Source: Dehalococcoidia bacterium (GTDB taxonomy: Bacteria; Chloroflexota; Dehalococcoidia; DSTF01; JACRBR01). From it: a stretch of 56,380 nt of DNA. The first letter of the stretch is position 1, and the number at the start of each line of letters is the position of its first letter. The position numbers are program-made. Where the stretch lies: positions 1-56,380 of the forward strand of contig JBGQBE010000016.1 in the NCBI GenBank assembly GCA_041494685.1. The letters run 5' to 3'. Below, one piece after another: positions 12,001-39,000 of the stretch.

Positions 12001-15000
12001 CCGCTCATCGCATCATCCTCCTTTCCCGGAACGGGCGCTCCCGCGGCGATCAGCCGCGGGAGCGCCACAATCTTCACAACCCTCCGTCGACTCGTATCGG
12101 CTAACCCCCGGGCGCCGCTACCCCCGACGCCGCCGGCTCGACGAGCAGCCAGCCCGCCATCTCCAGGTGCAGCGCCGAACAGAACTCGGTGCAGTAGAAG
12201 TTATACGAGCCTGCCTTATCGGCGACGAAGTCGAAGTTCTCCGTGACTCCCGGTTCCAGGCTGGCGTTGATGTTGTACTGGGAGATGCCAAAGCCGTGGG
12301 TCGCGTCCTCGGTCTGCTCGATGTTGGTGATGTGGATCTTCACGTGGTCGCCCTGCTTCACGCGGATGATGTCCGGCGTGAAGTGGCTGCGCTGCGCTGT
12401 CATCCACACCTCGACAGTGTTGCCGTCACGGACGGTCTTCTCCCCGCCGAACTTGATCGCGAACGGGCTGGTCTGCATCGTCTGCAAGTCGGTGCCTGGC
12501 GGGTAGACGGGAATCGCCTTCAGCCTGGACGCCTTCATGATTTCCGCGTAGTGCGGCTCCCCGATGCCAATCGGTGTGTCGGAGATCAGATCCATGGGGC
12601 CGTTGCCGCCATTGAGGTCAATGAGCTGGAGATCTTGCGGGTGCAGCGGTCCGATGGTCTGGAAGCGGTCGATCGACCACTTGTTGAGCGCCACGAGGTA
12701 CTTGGAATCGGGGTGCTCGGTGTCGCCCTCCGTGACAGCCAGGTGGCCGATGTTGTAGTTCACGGGGATGGTCTGGATCAGGCTGAATGGCTTTTCTCCG
12801 GTCTTGACAACGTCGTCGCCCAGTGTGAACTTCGCGACGGCGCTCGCCAGGAACATGCTGGTGTAACCGTGGCCCATGCCGTCGAACTGCGTGTGCAGCG
12901 GGCCGGCGCCCACTTCGACCTGCGCCGCGACGACGGAGTCGAACTTGAGCACGTGGATGCCGAACACGTCGTCCTTTTCGTAGTCCTTGCTCTCGATGGC
13001 TTTCTGGATCTTGTTGAAGTCGAAGATCGTCACGTGCGGGTCAAGCTTGCCGCCGACGACGATGTAGCGGCCCGACGGGTCGACGTCCGCGCCGTGCGGG
13101 CTCTTCGGCTCCGGGATCAGGTAGAGCAGGCCCTCGTCCACCGCGGTCTTCATCGAAATCACGGGGATGCCGTTCATCATCGGGGCCTTGCCGGCCTTGA
13201 CGACTTCCGCGGCCTTCTTCCAGTTGATGATGTGCAGGTAGTCGAAGTTGTTCTTCGACATGCCTGCCTCCATCGGCTGGCCGCCCTCCGCATCGCCGCC
13301 GGTCGCCATCTCGCTGTTGTAGGAGCCGATGAAGCCCCAGCCGTCGCTCACCAGCTTACCGGCGTCGGCGAGGTCCTGGTTGTACGGCGGCAGCTCGATC
13401 TCGAAGCTCTGTGAGAGGTCGAGCTTACCAGTCGTCTGGTCGATCTTGAGCCACGCGGACGCGCTGCGGAATTTCGCCTGATAGTCCTTCAGGTCGGCGT
13501 AGGTGCCGGGAGGCCACGGCTCCGGGTACGTCGCCGAAACGTGGACATAGTCCGAATTCGGCGTGACGAACATCCCGCCGTGCGACGTCTGGATATTCGG
13601 CACCGCCAGGATCTGCTTCGTGGTGAAGTCACGCAGGTCGACCATACCGACACGGCCGTTCGCGCGGTCGTTGATGTACAGGAACCGCCCGTCGTAGTCG
13701 CCGTTCGTCTCGCTCAGGGCCGGGTGGTGCGTGTCGCCCCACGTGAGGTCTACATTTGCCGGGACCGTTGGGTTACCGTTCTTGAGGATCGTGTCGCCGG
13801 CATCGGCGCCGTACCCATAGCCCTGCCACGACTCTGGCGTGAAGACCGCAATCGACTTCAAGATGCGCATCGATGGGACGCCGAGGACGAGCACCTGGCC
13901 GCCCTGGCCGTCCGACGAGAACATGACGTATTCGTCCTTCTTGCCCGGCGGAACGAACTGCTGGAGGGCGTGCTTCATGTCCTCCGGGGTCAGCCCACGC
14001 TCCTTCGCGACCGCGTCAAGATCGGCGCTGCCGGTCGACGCGGTGTTCTTGCTCTTGCTGCTGCTACAGCCGACGCTCGCCGCAACGACGAGCAGCGCCG
14101 CACCTACAACCATCAGCATCCGTACCGATGTCCGAGACAACTTCATGGCCACAGACCTCCCCTACTAGCCCGATAGGGCTACGCGCTCATTGCGGCATGA
14201 TCGCCATTCTCCTGCAACAGCTGTAAGAGCCTGACGCCCCTCTTGTGAGGCGTTTCGCAATCACCGAACAGGCCGAATGGCACATGATCTGCACACCCAG
14301 CGGTCGAGGTCGAGAGCCCGTTCCGTACTGCCCCGCCCGTGTCACCACGCGACCCGACGCTCCGCAAAGGGCCGATCGTCCCCACTCAAACCGGCCGTTG
14401 GCCTCGGGCCCCTGAGTCCGCGATGGGCTAAGTAATAGGGACGTGAAGGGGTTCGCTCTCACCGGCCGGGCATACATGCGAGGAGCACCATGCAGAGTTC
14501 TCTCAAACGATGGGCCTGGCTGGGACTCGGCGTCGTCGGCCTCGCCGCGGCGGCGAATGCGGCCTGCGGGCAGGCTGGTACGTATGAGAAGACCCCCACA
14601 CCCGGTGCGCCACCCCCAGCGGCGACGAAACCGGCGACTACGCCCGCCGCCACGGCGGCGGCAACCGGGGCTGCCGCGACGCCGTCGGCCGCCTCGCCCA
14701 CGCAGGCTGCCGCAACCACGGCCACGGCCGGTGGCGGCGGCGAGGCCACAACGCTGACACTCGTCGCGAAGAACACCCTCTTCGACAAGAGCGAGTTGAA
14801 GGCGAAGGCCGGCGCGGTGACGATCGAAGTCGATAACCAGGATGGCGGTATCCCGCACAACCTCCATGTCTACAGGGGGAAGGACAATACGGGGGAAGAT
14901 ATGGGAAAGACGGAGATCGCAGCCGGTCCCGTAAAGCAGACGCTCAAGCTTCAACTGACGGCTGGCGAGTACTTCTTCGTCTGCGAGGTCCACCCTCCGA

Positions 15001-36000: not shown

Positions 36001-39000
36001 CAAGAACCTCGGCCCCGCCGACTCCGACCCGCGCAAGGCAATCATCGCGGAGGCATCGGTCGACGAAGAGGACGTCATCTGCGCGACGGTCGACGTCGCG
36101 GGCGAGGGCGGCGTCAGCCCGAATGGTCGCCTCGCGGAGATCCCCGACATCTCCGAACGCATGAGCAAGGAGCCGCGCTATGGCGGTGCTTGACGCCGCG
36201 CGCTGGCTGACGTCGCGACCCGGCTCCCAGGAGCTCACGCAGCCGCGCGCGCTCGGCGCACGCAACCACGTCGCGTTGTGGGCGGCGTTGTCGATGAGCC
36301 TGCTCGTCTTCGTGCCCGGCGCGTACCTTGTACCGGCGCTCCGGCTGCGCGACGCCATCGCCGTAAGCATCGCCGGCAGCCTTGCCGGCGCCGCGATGCT
36401 CGGCGCGGTCGCCGGCCTCGCGGCGAAGCACCACCGCAACAGCGTCGGCCTGCTGGCGTCGACGCTCGGCGTGCCTGCCGGCCCGATCGTGGCGGCGTTC
36501 TTGCTGTTGCGCCACGTGGTCTGGGCCATATTCACGCTGGCGTTCGCCGCGAACGTCGCGTCGCACGTGCCCGGCCTCCGCGGATCCGCCGCGACGTGGG
36601 GCATCGCGTTCGGCGCGCTCGCGCTCGCGCTGGCGTTGCTGCCGTCGCGCCTGTTCGTCGAACGGTGGATCGGCTGGTTCTCGGTATGGGTGGGTGTGGT
36701 GCTCGTCGCGCTTGTCACGCTCACCGGCATCACCACCTACGGCATCCCCGTCTTGCACGACGCCGACGGCCTCGGCGGCTGGCCGACGCGCGCGCAGGGC
36801 TTCGACCTGATCGCCGCGATGCCGCTGCTCTGGCTCCCCGTCGTCGCGGACTACGCGTACGACGCGCGCTCGCGGCGCGCCGCCGGCGTGGGCACCTTCG
36901 CCGGCTCCGGCCTGATGACGGCATGGTACGCCACCGTCGGCGTCCTCTGGGTGTTCACGGTGAGCGCTCCCGACGTCGCCGGCTTCATGAGCGCGCTGCC
37001 GATCGGCGCGGCCGCCATCCTCATCGTCATCGCGCTCCAGGCCAACGCCGTTGCCGCGAACCTCTACGCCGCATCGATGGCGGGCGGGCGGTTCGGATAC
37101 CGCTGGTTCCGCCCGGCACTGATCGCGGCCGGCATCCTCGCCGGCGCCGTCGTCGCACGCACCGACGCGTTGGGCGTCGAGGATGCCGCCCTGCTGCTGG
37201 CGTCGATCTTCTTGCCGCTCTTCGCGGTGGTGCTGGCCCGCGCGATCGTCCCAGCGGCTCCGTCGGCGCTCTCGTGGCTCGCCTGGGCAGCCGGCGTGCT
37301 CGCGTACGGCTGGATCGATCCCAGCGGCGTCTCCGCGTGGCGCGCCACGATGGAGTTCATCTTCAGCACGGTGCTGCACGCGCCGTTCCCGCTCGGCGGC
37401 GACCTGACGCAGCTGCCGGCGACCGCCGTTTCGTTCGCCGTGGCGGCCGGCCTCTACCTCGCAACCGCGTGGCCCGTGCAGCGGCTGAGGAGGGTGTGAT
37501 GGCAGAACGTGCGCCGACGCCGCAACGTCAGCTGGCGATGGTCTTCGACCTGAACAAGTGCCTCGGCTGCCAGACCTGCTCGATCGCGTGCAAGACGCTC
37601 TGGACGGACCAGGAAGGCATGGAGCACATGTGGTGGAACGTGGTGAACACGCTCCCCGGTGCGGGCTCGCCGCGGAACTGGATGCAGATCGCCGGCGGGT
37701 TCGACCAGGACGGCAAGTCGCGGCCGAGCCAGCTGCCGACGAGCGAAGACTTCGGCGTCGCCTGGGACTACAACTACGACGAAGTCTGGAACGGCGGCCC
37801 CAATACCGTGCTGACCAAGGACCGCGAGACGAACTGGGGCATGAACTGGGACGAAGACCAGGGCGAAGGCGAGTGGCCGAACAACTACTTCTTCTACCTG
37901 CCGCGCATCTGCATGCACTGCACGCGCCCCGCCTGTCTGGAAGCATGCCCTCGCACCGCGATCTACAAGCGCGAGGACAACGGCACGGTGCTGCTGGACG
38001 AGGAGCGGTGCCACGGCTACCGCTTCTGCGCCGAGGCGTGCCCCTACAAGCGCATCTATTTCAACCCGAAGCGCCGCCTGTCGCAGAAGTGCGTGCTCTG
38101 TTTCGCACGCGTCGAACAAGGCGTCGCGCCCGCGTGCATGCGCCAGTGCCCTGGCCGCATCCGCTTCTTCGGCTACCTCGATGACGAGAAGAGCGCGGTC
38201 TACAAGCTGGTCAAGAAGTGGAAGGTCGCGATCCGCCTGCACCCGGAGTTCGGCACGGAGCCGAACCTGTACTACGTGCCGCCGCTTGCGCCGCCGCGTC
38301 TCCTGCCGAACGGCGACGTCGACGAAGCCAACCCCCGCATCCCGAAGGACTACATGGAGTGGCTGTTCGGCAGCGCCGTGTGGCCCGCGCTGGACACGCT
38401 GAAGGCCGAGATCGAGAAGCGGCAGAAGGGTGAGCCGTCCGAGTTGATGGACACGCTCATCGCTTTCGAGCACAAGGACATGTTCGGCGGGTTCTCGAAG
38501 GATCCGGGCACGCTGGACCGCAAGCCCCGTCACGTCGATACGGGCCAGCTGTTCTCACCAGGGACGCAACCAACGTAGCGAGGCTGACGATGCGACAGTA
38601 TGTCCTGCACCGAATGCTCCTCAACGTCCCGGTCATCCTGATCGTCGTGACGCTGGTGTTCTTCGCGAGTCACATCCGCCCTGACTTCGCCGAGCAGCGC
38701 GCCGCCCAGGGGCAGTCGAGCACCAAGGATTACGACCAGGCCATCCAGGCGATCCGCCACCAGCTCGGGACCGATAAGCCGCTCTGGCAGCAGTACGTCA
38801 ACTACATGGGCGAGGTCGGGCGCGGCGACTTCGGCACGTCCTTCATCACGGGCCACTCGGTGACCTCCGAGCTGAAGAGCCGTCTCCCCGCTTCGATGGA
38901 GCTCGGCGCGCTGCAGATACTGATCGCGCTGGCCATCGCGCTCCCCATCGGCGTGCTCTCGGCGATCCGCCAGGACACCTGGCTGGACTACCTGCTGCGC

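Follow-up and report, generated by a model that had tools for sequence, protein, structure and literature searches.

Nine ethylbenzene-dehydrogenase-type alpha subunits, eight without an export signal, in a sediment Dehalococcoidia bacterium

A stretch of 56,380 nucleotides on contig C16 of a sediment Dehalococcoidia genome (a high-GC metagenome bin), here called the window, encodes five of the nine alpha subunits of Mo-bis-PGD/Fe-S enzymes of the ethylbenzene-dehydrogenase/steroid-C25-dehydrogenase kind in this organism. Eight of the nine lack an export signal. On balance, we lean towards reading them as predicted cytoplasm-resident C-H hydroxylases for alkyl- or isoprenoid-type substrates, served by a few common electron-transfer subunits.

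Gene complement of the window and of the genome

A tblastn search of the whole assembly (87 contigs, 3.29 Mb; E<=1e-10) with alpha A5 (32208-35123) as query yielded exactly nine full-length alpha genes, five on C16, three on C15 and one on C30, as the initial annotation had counted them. Its three beta genes, two gamma genes and single NarJ-type chaperone gene were likewise recovered as genome-wide totals; two of the betas, both gammas and the chaperone lie in the window, along with a MobB-FmdE cofactor helper (Table 1). The Pfam domains named before were seen again on the window genes, Molybdopterin and Molydop_binding in all five alphas, EB_dh in two genes, Fer4_11 in the betas and Nitrate_red_del in one gene. 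Pairwise identity among the nine paralogs ranges from 37 to 59%, which agrees with the earlier upper bound and lowers the other one from 38%. Within the order, matches at E<=1e-60 occurred in 29 of 93 genomes and were absent from 64, while 17 of the 93 had at least nine. The spread is patchy, as described previously, with 29 of 93 in place of 22 of 60.

Table 1. Features encoded in the window
Feature	Position	Strand	Evidence
Cupredoxin lipoprotein gene	14490-15029		Upstream of A1
Alpha A1 (937 aa), without export signal	15064..17877	+	Pfam Molybdopterin + Molydop_binding; 2ivf_A E 1.1e-230
CMD/AhpD-family small gene	17880..18302	+	Pfam CMD 2.7e-11; Shine-Dalgarno box at start
Alpha A2 (938 aa), without export signal	18420..21236	-	Pfam; ATG after GGGAGG box
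MobB-FmdE fusion (368 aa)	21416..22522	+	Pfam MobB 3.3e-31, FmdE 6.8e-33; NCBIfam mobB 101 bits, cut-off 76.2
Gamma 1 (217 aa), heme-b subunit type	22516..23169	+	Pfam EB_dh 1.1e-24; 2ivf_C 3.2e-25
NarJ/EbdD-type chaperone, start approximate	23142..23840	+	Pfam Nitrate_red_del 9.6e-18
Alpha A3 (936 aa), divergent paralog	24318..27128	-	Pfam; 37-39% identity to other eight
Alpha A4 (956 aa), without export signal	27394..30264	+	Pfam; opens row A4-gamma2-beta1-A5
Gamma 2 (214 aa)	30261..30905	+	Pfam EB_dh 1.6e-26; 2ivf_C alignment
Beta 1 (379 aa), four-cluster Fe-S, without signal	30919..32058	+	Fer4_11 2.4e-29; TIGR03478 488.7 bits, cut-off 480.7
Alpha A5 (971 aa), sole Tat-bearing paralog	32208..35123	+	2ivf_A 4.1e-250
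Carbon-nitrogen hydrolase family gene	35120..36193	+	Pfam CN_hydrolase 2.2e-16; ATG overlaps A5 stop (ATGA)
Membrane permease (439 aa), distantly CytX-like	36180..37499	+	TIGR02358 1.1e-29, far below cut-off
Beta 2 (359 aa), without signal	37499..38578	+	Fer4_11 7.8e-31; TIGR03478 492.9 bits, above cut-off; ATG overlaps permease stop

The region had been taken to begin at 14490, where the cupredoxin gene, no part of an alpha, is located. Its reading frame ends at 15029, 34 nt before the A1 start codon, which is preceded by a GGGAGGGG box. The same arrangement is present in the related loci L004, L005 and L006, and nosZ adjoins it in L004 and L006. The GTG start of the CMD/AhpD-family gene shares bases with the A1 stop; among related loci, only the closest A1 orthologue, that of L005, is followed by it. 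The MobB-FmdE fusion, presumably a helper of molybdenum-cofactor (bis-PGD) insertion, exists in one copy in the genome and is also present in L048, L102 and L138. The chaperone gene, the single tblastn match genome-wide, scored 139.7 bits with TIGR03482, below the cut-off of 152.3. A5 is the only alpha above the TIGR03479 cut-off (1014.2 against 984.75). The order A4-gamma2-beta1-A5 recurs in L009 and L024, and the pair of A5 and CN_hydrolase gene is kept behind the A5 orthologue of L081 (78% identity). The permease gene gave no Pfam match at 1e-5; its third-position GC is 0.93.

The alphas had been described as set among beta-oxidation genes. This applies to the C15 and C30 copies, which are neighboured by thiolase, acyl-CoA dehydrogenase, CoA-transferase and CoA-ligase genes, but not to the window, where a nosZ cluster, cofactor genes and transporters are found instead. 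A clade II N2O reductase is encoded beside the alpha region. None of the RNA runs contains the window stretch.

Export signals and the phylogeny of their loss

To our knowledge, an export signal is present in every studied relative of these alphas. Signals were called by a motif-plus-hydropathy rule and inspection by eye rather than by a trained predictor. Among the nine alphas, RRxFLK with a hydrophobic core was detected in A5 only (signal MTTRVNRRTFLKGSGAVVTAMGL...), whose alignment to 2ivf_A extends through the signal. As TatC is encoded in the genome and one paralog carries a classical signal, the organism uses the Tat pathway. The upstream frames of the other eight alphas, read to the preceding stop, revealed no twin-arginine motif with a hydrophobic core. 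In-frame stops are located 35 codons upstream of the A1 ATG (15064), with no RR motif, and 13 codons upstream of the A4 ATG (27394), excluding signal-bearing starts further upstream for both. The A2 upstream frame contains no Tat-like stretch, while A3 has retained a remnant, SLRRL, but not the hydrophobic core. Orthologues in related genomes (79-90% identity) possess equally short N-termini. The earlier statement that one alpha alone has a Tat signal thus holds with all nine frames read to the preceding stop instead of over 240 nt. Of 90 alpha N-termini from 68 related loci, 14 received a Tat-like flag; 11 were judged real by eye, none of which belongs to an orthologue of the signal-less paralogs.

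It is hardly credible that gene calling, assembly error or decay, i.e. wrong starts, frameshifts or pseudogenes, caused this pattern. The source, a metagenome bin of high GC content, is split into 87 contigs, and the C30 alpha has no ATG, GTG or TTG 5' of its FS0 motif: an ACG at 8213 follows a GGAGG box by 8 nt, and the start at 8354 given previously would remove the motif from the protein. However, contigs from three sequencing runs match the assembly at this start region, the nine alpha frames run uninterrupted for 920-971 codons at a third-position GC of 0.88-0.93, the catalytic residues are invariant, and both the stops 5' of A1 and A4 and the short N-termini of the orthologues argue against miscalled starts. 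The alpha genes are intact, the only reservation being the C30 copy, whose start is unclear.

Two trees, in which EbdA is the only named anchor (AhyA, CmdA and S25dA sequences were not included), bear on the origin of the signal-less state. FastTree (146 rows) recovered a 93-row clade with a support of 100, comprising 92 signal-less rows and one Tat call judged false; in IQ-TREE (64 rows), all members of a 36-row clade were signal-less (SH-aLRT 100). Seven of the eight signal-less paralogs, A1 and A2 among them, fall inside this clade, which covers Chloroflexota, Binatota, Actinomycetota, Myxococcota and other phyla. In the IQ-TREE result the Tat clade of A5 is its sister (80) and the EbdA clade stands next out (100), both signal-bearing. 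Because relatives with Tat signals surround the signal-less clade, the loss happened a single time, at its base. Lack of a signal characterises the clade as a whole and does not depend on individual gene calls. A3 is placed by both trees among Tat-bearing sequences of Binatia and Myxococcota. Its joining the main signal-less clade was rejected (AU test, p 7.7e-5), and A3 lost its signal separately from the other seven. No description of a signal-less branch of such alphas was found in the literature. The upstream frames, closed or free of Tat signals, the short orthologue N-termini and the clade-wide lack of signals favour the earlier view of mostly cytoplasmic copies, a location predicted from sequence by rule of thumb.

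Export of the signal-less alphas and a role outside the membrane, by way of a signal-bearing partner (the A5 complex or an unrecognised protein) or an unrecognised signal, appear improbable. The deposited EbdC (2ivf_C) begins without a signal peptide, so that hitch-hiking on alpha is already a means of subunit export in the family; moreover, a signal-less alpha, a gamma, a beta and a Tat-bearing alpha stand in one row in three genomes, and the gene directly 5' of A1 encodes an exported cupredoxin. On the other hand, no beta or gamma bears a signal, neither in this genome nor in the related loci (57 beta and 15 gamma frames), which leaves hitch-hiking on these partners, a caveat of the initial annotation, unsupported. 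Because the solved enzyme is described as having a single alpha in its alpha-beta-gamma complex (PMC8840923, in extract), an alpha carrying a second alpha is not expected. Beta alone recurs in the neighbour census, and lies within 3 kb in only 19 of the 68 loci. The signal-less state is also fixed over 92 sampled clade members of several phyla, among them diderm lineages that retain classical signals on other paralogs of the same loci.

Active site, partner subunits and chemistry

Aligned to EbdA, all nine alphas have the equivalents of Asp223 and Lys450 and none has His192, the same counts as reported before. The FS0 motif H-x3-C-xn-C...C is present in eight; A3, formerly listed as an exception, contains an all-Cys motif of this type, C-x4-C-x3-C, in which Cys replaces the His of the others. 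In gamma 1 the heme-ligand columns still hold Met and Lys, whereas gamma 2 and its L009 orthologue show Leu and Arg at these positions of EbdC. EbdA (Aromatoleum EbdABC(D), PDB 2IVF) is the best solved relative, matching A1 (1.1e-230) and A5 (4.1e-250) over nearly their full length; perchlorate reductase scored 1e-139 and 1e-150, and NarG, a distant relative, 1e-53 to 1e-70.

It is conceivable, though clearly less probable than not, that most of these enzymes are cytoplasmic but use Mo-bis-PGD for other reactions of organic or inorganic substrates, e.g. reduction or dehydroxylation, alcohol oxidation to aldehyde as by S26DH, or oxyanion reduction, with electrons taken from carriers of the cell. 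Type II reductases and dehydrogenases have a common Asp/Lys/FS0 frame (PMC10100899, in extract), S26DH also converts an allylic alcohol into the aldehyde (PMC7411048, in extract), and the cytoplasm suits a reductase fed at low potential better than a hydroxylase requiring a high-potential acceptor. The missing His192, the EbdA equivalog scores of 625-882, with none of the nine reaching the cut-off of 2000, and the lack of heme ligands in gamma 2 point in the same direction. However, eight of the nine paralogs belong to a 41-row clade holding EbdA (IQ-TREE, SH-aLRT 100), perchlorate and nitrate reductases are much more distant from the alphas than EbdA is, beta-oxidation-type genes adjoin the C15 and C30 copies, and the His is also missing in S25DH, an aliphatic C-H hydroxylase (review PMC6153880, in extract).

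Relation to known systems and proposed role

EbdABC(D) has the same set of alpha, beta, gamma and chaperone genes, but the order here is alpha-gamma-beta and identity to EbdA is only about 37-45%. EbDH is a soluble periplasmic enzyme (PMC8840923, in extract), and S25DH and S26DH have Tat sequences and were assigned to the periplasm (PMC7411048, in extract), in contrast to eight of the nine alphas here. S25DH and S26DH act on aliphatic side chains feeding beta-oxidation; the likeness to S25dA rests on descriptions, not on sequence comparison. According to the available part of PMC6016249, Sterolibacterium denitrificans (S25dA1-8) has eight alpha paralogs, beta3,4/gamma3,4 and one chaperone, SdhD, so that many alphas with few beta/gamma subunits and one chaperone are not new. 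AhyA, an EBDH orthologue with proposed aliphatic C-H hydroxylation (PMC3653055, PMC7803848), is compared here by published description, not by sequence, and its activity is itself putative. Surveys list several putative ahyA genes per Chloroflexota genome, 1.44 copies on average (PMC13170169), and one Bacillota isolate is reported to have eight AhyA homologues (PMC13515206). Word searches of these four papers found no mention of signal peptides or location. A precedent for a non-exported molybdoenzyme is NarG with NarJ: the type II, Asp-ligated NarGHI works on the cytoplasmic side, the N-terminus being a remnant Tat peptide bound by NarJ (PMC10609526, in extract). The A3 remnant and the NarJ-family chaperone of the locus resemble this system; however, Nar has the membrane di-heme NarI, while the gammas here are of the soluble EB_dh type.

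Under the favoured reading as cytoplasmic hydroxylases, the eight signal-less alphas would be matured by the chaperone and retained in the cytoplasm like NarG, pairing with common beta (and gamma) subunits like the Sterolibacterium isoenzymes. Each alpha might catalyse water-based hydroxylation of an unactivated C-H bond of a separate hydrophobic substrate (alkyl, isoprenoid or sterol-like side chain), the products passing to the enzymes encoded beside the C15 and C30 copies. Electrons would run through FS0-FS4, and also through heme b in the case of a gamma with intact ligands, to some acceptor and on to a respiratory chain that would include the neighbouring N2O reductase. A5 would carry out the same type of chemistry outside the membrane.

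Several observations speak against this hydroxylase reading. In the model enzymes the heme b potential is reported to be high and the acceptor to be cytochrome c (PMC8840923, PMC6153880, both in extract); they need a high-potential acceptor, and a cytoplasmic counterpart was not evident in the 68-locus neighbour census. The cupredoxin gene could hint at a partner outside, although nosZ is its neighbour in L004 and L006. At a ratio of 9:3:2 most alphas have no dedicated partner, gamma 2 is devoid of both heme-ligand residues, and a canonical start codon is missing from the C30 copy. While subunit sharing is already known from Sterolibacterium (PMC6016249, in extract), the predicted cytoplasmic location is the novel element.

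Gene content of the window and family assignment of the alpha subunits

The window, which is contig C16 in its entirety, belongs to an assembly of 3.29 Mb in 87 contigs (completeness 97.6%) and has a GC content of 60-70%. The closest relatives of its genes were found in metagenome bins titled Dehalococcoidia or Chloroflexota, and its DNA was found again in sediment metagenomes; no RNA runs were listed with the segment 27394-35123. The gene order was derived from Pfam matches of open frames with a coding-type third-position GC and is summarized in the table together with features of C15 and C30, two other contigs of this genome. 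In the row from alpha A4 to beta 2, stop and start codons overlap at three joints.

Features of the window (in gene order) and of contigs C15 and C30
Feature	Position	Strand	Remark
P-type ATPase, moaA, TPP enzyme, hydrolase			first genes of the window
nosY, nosF, nosD, nosZ and cupredoxin	8120-15029	nos genes -, cupredoxin +	
Cupredoxin lipoprotein gene	14490-15029	+	directly upstream of A1
Alpha A1	15064-17877	+	stop overlapped by a small CMD-family gene
Alpha A2	18420-21236	-	
MobB-FmdE fusion	21416-22522		between A2 and A3
Gamma 1	22516-23169		between A2 and A3
Chaperone, NarJ/EbdD-type	23142-23840		between A2 and A3
Alpha A3	24318-27128	-	
Alpha A4	27394-30264		start of the row to beta 2
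Gamma 2	30261-30905		
Beta 1	30919-32058		
Alpha A5	32208-35123		
Carbon-nitrogen hydrolase	35120-36193		overlaps A5 stop (ATGA)
Permease			
Beta 2	37499-38578		end of the row
Opp-type ABC transporter			downstream of beta 2
GAF-domain histidine kinase, LuxR-type response regulator	42505-44578		
MFS pump, second cupredoxin, 2-oxoacid dehydrogenase complex			
RHS-repeat protein gene	54530-56380		runs past contig end; lower GC (0.60-0.65)
C15, GAF-domain histidine kinase, LuxR-type response regulator	35236-37726		
C15, aldehyde:ferredoxin oxidoreductase	42246-44120		L070 (C15 stretch) 11247-13121; two frames
C30, alpha	8099-11008		L071 (C30 stretch)

A tblastn search of the whole assembly with A5 yielded nine full-length alphas, five on C16, three on C15 and one on C30, and none further at E<=1e-10. 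Their pairwise identities are 37-59%, with A3 as the outlier (37-39%). Genome-wide, there are three betas of the ethylbenzene dehydrogenase (EBDH) type, one chaperone and one MobB-FmdE gene, while two gammas were found, also by a Pfam EB_dh scan. The initial annotation, which had counted nine alpha, three beta, two gamma and one chaperone gene, was thus confirmed. The same pattern of many alpha paralogs, few betas and gammas and one chaperone is described for Sterolibacterium in an excerpt of PMC6016249.

Searches against the PDB placed EbdA ahead of PcrA and NarG. A1 matched 2ivf_A, the alpha subunit of the solved EBDH, with an E-value of 1.1e-230, perchlorate reductase with 1e-139 and NarG with 1e-53; the respective values of A5 were 4.1e-250, 1e-150 and 1e-70. 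For all nine alphas the best-scoring family by far was TIGR03479 (type II molybdopterin subunit, cut-off 984.75). A5 reached 1014.2, the other eight scored 829.1-930.4 and stayed under the cut-off because the profile positions 1 to 33-46, which represent the signal part, were unmatched. The best matches of the partner proteins were TIGR03478 for the betas (488.7, 492.9 and 469.9 for beta 1, 2 and 3; cut-off 480.7), TIGR03477 for the gammas (144.7 and 162.3; cut-off 169.85) and TIGR03482 for the chaperone (139.7; cut-off 152.3). All alphas scored far under the cut-off of 2000 of the EbdA equivalog NF042978 (625.1-881.7). In an IQ-TREE analysis, eight of them shared a 41-row clade with Aromatoleum EbdA (SH-aLRT 100), and A3 was placed in the tree's remaining half, where no named enzyme occurs. 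Judged by this phylogeny and the PDB E-values, A1, A2, A4, A5 and the C15 and C30 copies group with EbdA and not with the oxyanion reductases. We infer for them a water-dependent hydroxylation of unactivated C-H bonds; substrates, electron acceptor and cellular location are likewise putative.

The active-site residues were compared in an alignment, which bore out what had been noted before on Asp223, Lys450 and His192 of EbdA. The Mo-ligating Asp (Asp223) is present at the aligned column in 9/9 alphas and is invariant including Aromatoleum EbdA; the Lys450 equivalent was also found in all nine. At the position of EbdA His192, which we take to be the active-site histidine, Thr, Gly or other residues occur in each of the nine alphas, never His. 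According to an excerpt of PMC6153880, the lysine holds the Asp ligand in a monodentate fashion, and an active-site histidine is hosted by EBDH and missing in S25DH. The motif of the Fe-S cluster FS0, which had been reported for all but a divergent alpha, occurs in eight of the nine in its His/three-Cys form (H-x3-C-x4-C plus the Cys of NPxGCQKG), but A3 has the variant C-x4-C-x3-C. The three FS0 cysteines and the Lys next to the Asp ligand are invariant in the alignment of the paralogs with EbdA of Aromatoleum toluclasticum. Ligation of FS0 by one His and three Cys is called conserved throughout subfamily II in the part of PMC8840923 consulted.

Export signals of the alpha subunits

For the analysis of export signals, every alpha frame was read upstream as far as the preceding stop codon. 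The N-terminus of A5, MTTRVNRRTFLKGSGAVVTAMGL, is a classical twin-arginine signal and the sole one among the nine alphas. In the other eight frames, read to the same limit, no such signal was found, in agreement with the initial annotation, which had assigned an RR signal to a single alpha. The ATG of A1 lies behind a Shine-Dalgarno box 34 nt past the cupredoxin stop, and its frame is closed by a stop 35 codons upstream; for A4, the corresponding stop is located 13 codons upstream. The upstream frames of A2, A3 and the three C15 copies are open further, and they did not reveal any RR motif followed by a hydrophobic stretch. These five genes each have a start codon 20-55 residues ahead of the FS0 motif, preceded by a good Shine-Dalgarno box.

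The start of the C30 copy is peculiar, as no ATG, GTG or TTG precedes the FS0 motif. An ACG at 8213 has a GGAGG box 8 nt upstream, and contigs of three sequencing runs, one of which is maybe the source sample, agreed with the assembly at 8213-8215 and did not contain an ATG variant. Either a rare start codon is used or the gene is no longer translated in full; whichever start is used, the frame encodes no signal.

TatC is encoded in the genome, and in this set of alphas, betas and gammas the signal of A5 is the only export signal. All characterised members of the family, namely EBDH, p-cymene dehydrogenase, S25DH and S26DH, are described as periplasmic and Tat-dependent (PMC7411048, PMC8840923, PMC10100899, each in excerpt). 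Of the nine alphas here, one carries such a signal. The N-termini support the interpretation that most of the alphas would stay in the cytoplasm, unlike the periplasmic model enzymes, as had been predicted; the lack of the signal is an inherited clade feature plus one independent loss.

Phylogeny of the signal-less alphas

By use of A1, 68 related loci were fetched and 90 alpha N-termini were screened with a lenient Tat rule. Tat-like flags were raised for 14 of the 90, of which 11 proved by eye to be classical signals and three lay in upstream non-coding frames. Orthologues of A1, A2 and A4 have the same short signal-less N-termini, and the A5 orthologue has the same signal.

Trees were calculated from 137 alpha frames of 127 loci and the nine paralogs; frames with fewer than 850 residues or a truncated 3' end were left out, and the N-termini were cut back to keep the signal out of the alignment. 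EbdA is the only named enzyme in these trees, S25dA, CmdA and AhyA being absent. It was obtained by a degenerate pattern from an EbdA alignment, which matched three loci, including one in Aromatoleum toluclasticum; a scan with that protein yielded two loci only, and among the at least 608 stretches listed by an alignment-based scan there was no Sterolibacterium or Desulfococcus record. The alpha of L076 (CAYXEY010000020.1), from a bin titled Planctomycetaceae, is 92% identical to the EbdA-like gene of A. toluclasticum, so either this contig was misbinned or the gene was transferred recently.

FastTree revealed a clade of 93 rows (support 100), of which 92 are signal-less and one has a Tat call that was judged false. 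The same clade was recovered by IQ-TREE on 64 chosen rows, with 36/36 rows signal-less and an SH-aLRT value of 100. It comprises A1, A2, A4 and the four C15 and C30 copies, and its members bear the titles Chloroflexota, Binatia, Actinomycetes, Acidimicrobiia, Myxococcales, Acidobacteria, Gammaproteobacteria and Spirochaetales. The sister group, a small clade that contains A5, bears Tat signals (union support 80) and is followed by the EbdA clade (100); the remainder of the tree is Tat-bearing for the most part. With the root placed outside, this nesting next to Tat-bearing clades implies one signal loss, followed by radiation and spread between phyla. The missing signal is an inherited trait of a large clade next to EbdA.

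A3 followed another route. Its N-terminus, MVPRAHPTAAPSLRRLTAAETNP, contains RR and lacks the hydrophobic core, and the RR remnant (SLRRL) recurs in the L009 orthologue and in P0014, an unrelated representative protein. Remnant Tat signals are known from NarG (PMC10609526, in excerpt), and the N-terminus of A3 looks alike. A3 groups with three signal-less Chloroflexota sequences amid Tat-bearing Binatia and Myxococcota; A3 and the L009 orthologue share the all-Cys FS0 motif, while Tat-bearing clade members have H-x4-C-x3-C. Joining the A3 group to the main signal-less clade was rejected by the AU test (p 7.7e-5, the group having been chosen after the tree was seen). The signal of A3 was lost independently.

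A library of 50%-identity representatives contained 763 proteins at E<=1e-30. The best 150 of these included 43 full-length sequences, among which inspection by eye identified 31 with a signal, seven without, two with long N-terminal extensions and three unclear cases. In P0005 (1152 residues), a NarJ-type chaperone domain (Nitrate_red_del, residues 64-178) precedes an EBDH-like alpha at the place of the Tat signal, which could be a true fusion or a join made by gene calling.

Within the order, matches at E<=1e-60 occurred in 29/93 genomes, or 14/48 of the high-quality genomes, and the family counts ranged from 0/21 to 15/35 genomes with matches. At least nine matches each were present in 17 genomes, with up to 38 first-look candidates; the closed relative G004 has 32 of them.

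Partner proteins, gene neighbourhoods and possible significance

A signal-less alpha might be carried out of the cell by a partner, as the initial annotation had cautioned. For beta and gamma as carriers, the inspected frames gave no support: neither a twin-arginine nor a Sec-type signal was detected beside the start in 57 beta and 15 gamma frames from this genome and the related loci. The lack of a signal in the gammas was in turn dropped as a sign of a cytoplasmic site: the deposited EbdC sequence equally starts without one, and signal-less gammas are therefore normal and uninformative on location. In three cases, this genome, L009 and L024, a single row contains a signal-less alpha, a gamma, a beta and a Tat-bearing alpha. 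From this arrangement we infer that one beta/gamma pair may serve both an enzyme inside and one outside.

Gamma 1 has kept Met and Lys at the heme-ligand columns, presumably residues 108 and 201, and gamma 2 and its L009 orthologue show Leu and Arg there. Met/Lys ligation of the gamma heme b is described for EBDH in an excerpt of PMC8840923. Across 15 gammas, Met/Lys was found in nine, Leu/Arg in two, Met/Ala in two (Chloroflexota) and Ile/Gly in two (actinobacterial); the altered columns belong to gamma 2 and to gammas of L009, L124, L149, L114 and L126. Going by these columns, gammas that perhaps lack conventional heme binding recur beside signal-less alphas.

Clustering of 418 neighbouring ORFs of 68 loci (3 kb on each side) revealed beta as the sole recurrent neighbour (19 loci). 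A conserved extra partner or electron acceptor did not emerge from it, the non-beta clusters each covering at most 7 of the 68 loci. The single-copy MobB-FmdE fusion gene also adjoins alphas in L048 (67% identical), L102 and L138. The pair of A5 and the carbon-nitrogen hydrolase gene is conserved in L081 (4092-5111) with 78% identity; we know of no EBDH-like operon with an amidase or nitrilase-type partner.

The nosZ gene beside the alphas belongs to clade II, the Sec-dependent type. L004 and L006 have retained the order nosZ - cupredoxin - A1 (NosZ 70-71% identical), L005 has kept the cupredoxin and L008 nosZ, which suggests a link between alkyl oxidation and N2O respiration in this group. 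The C15 alphas adjoin genes for a thiolase, an acyl-CoA dehydrogenase, a nitroreductase-family protein and CoA-transferase subunits; a few kb beyond are multiheme cytochromes, an Fe-S/NrfD module and the aldehyde:ferredoxin oxidoreductase. The two frames of the latter (487 and 136 residues) jointly cover the whole AFOR_C profile, and the split could be due to a stop codon or frameshift, a recoded codon or an assembly error. Adjacent to the C30 alpha are an enoyl-CoA hydratase, an acyl-CoA ligase and a thiolase-like/DUF35 pair. The kinase/LuxR pairs near the alpha clusters of C16 and C15 may be their regulators.

In the literature, 'ahyA' genes have been counted in Chloroflexota surveys, several per genome (PMC13170169), and eight homologues were reported for one Bacillota isolate (PMC13515206); word searches of both papers did not find any mention of signals or location. 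In the main texts of the literature collection searched, no account was found of EBDH-like enzymes that are signal-less or cytoplasmic, nor of a Chloroflexota expansion. Tat-independent enzymes might be simpler to produce than S25DH, an enzyme of interest for the production of 25-hydroxyvitamin D3 (PMC6016249, in excerpt).

The main difficulty of a cytoplasmic location is where an enzyme of the high-potential type would pass its electrons. We tentatively propose, as a reading that we consider somewhat short of probable, that seven of the nine paralogs represent an undescribed cross-phylum subfamily of cytoplasmic O2-independent C-H hydroxylases; an exported ancestor near EbdA would have given rise to it in a single event, by losing the Tat signal. 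In several lineages the gamma would also have been left without heme ligands, electrons leaving by a route other than cytochrome c. As many uncultured Dehalococcoidia of sediment and soil have nine or more copies per genome, such enzymes, and not the few periplasmic proteobacterial ones, would be the principal means by which alkyl, isoprenoid or sterol side chains are hydroxylated anaerobically in nature.

O2-independent hydroxylation of unactivated C-H bonds has been described for a handful of periplasmic enzymes of denitrifying Proteobacteria. Should the signal-less clade catalyse this chemistry in the cytoplasm, the reaction would be far more widespread and extend to sediment and soil Chloroflexota, Binatota, Actinomycetota and Myxococcota. 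The 'AhyA' counts of metagenome surveys would then need re-reading, because most of them may belong to the signal-less clade, and the wiring to the respiratory chain would have to differ, doing without a periplasmic cytochrome c.
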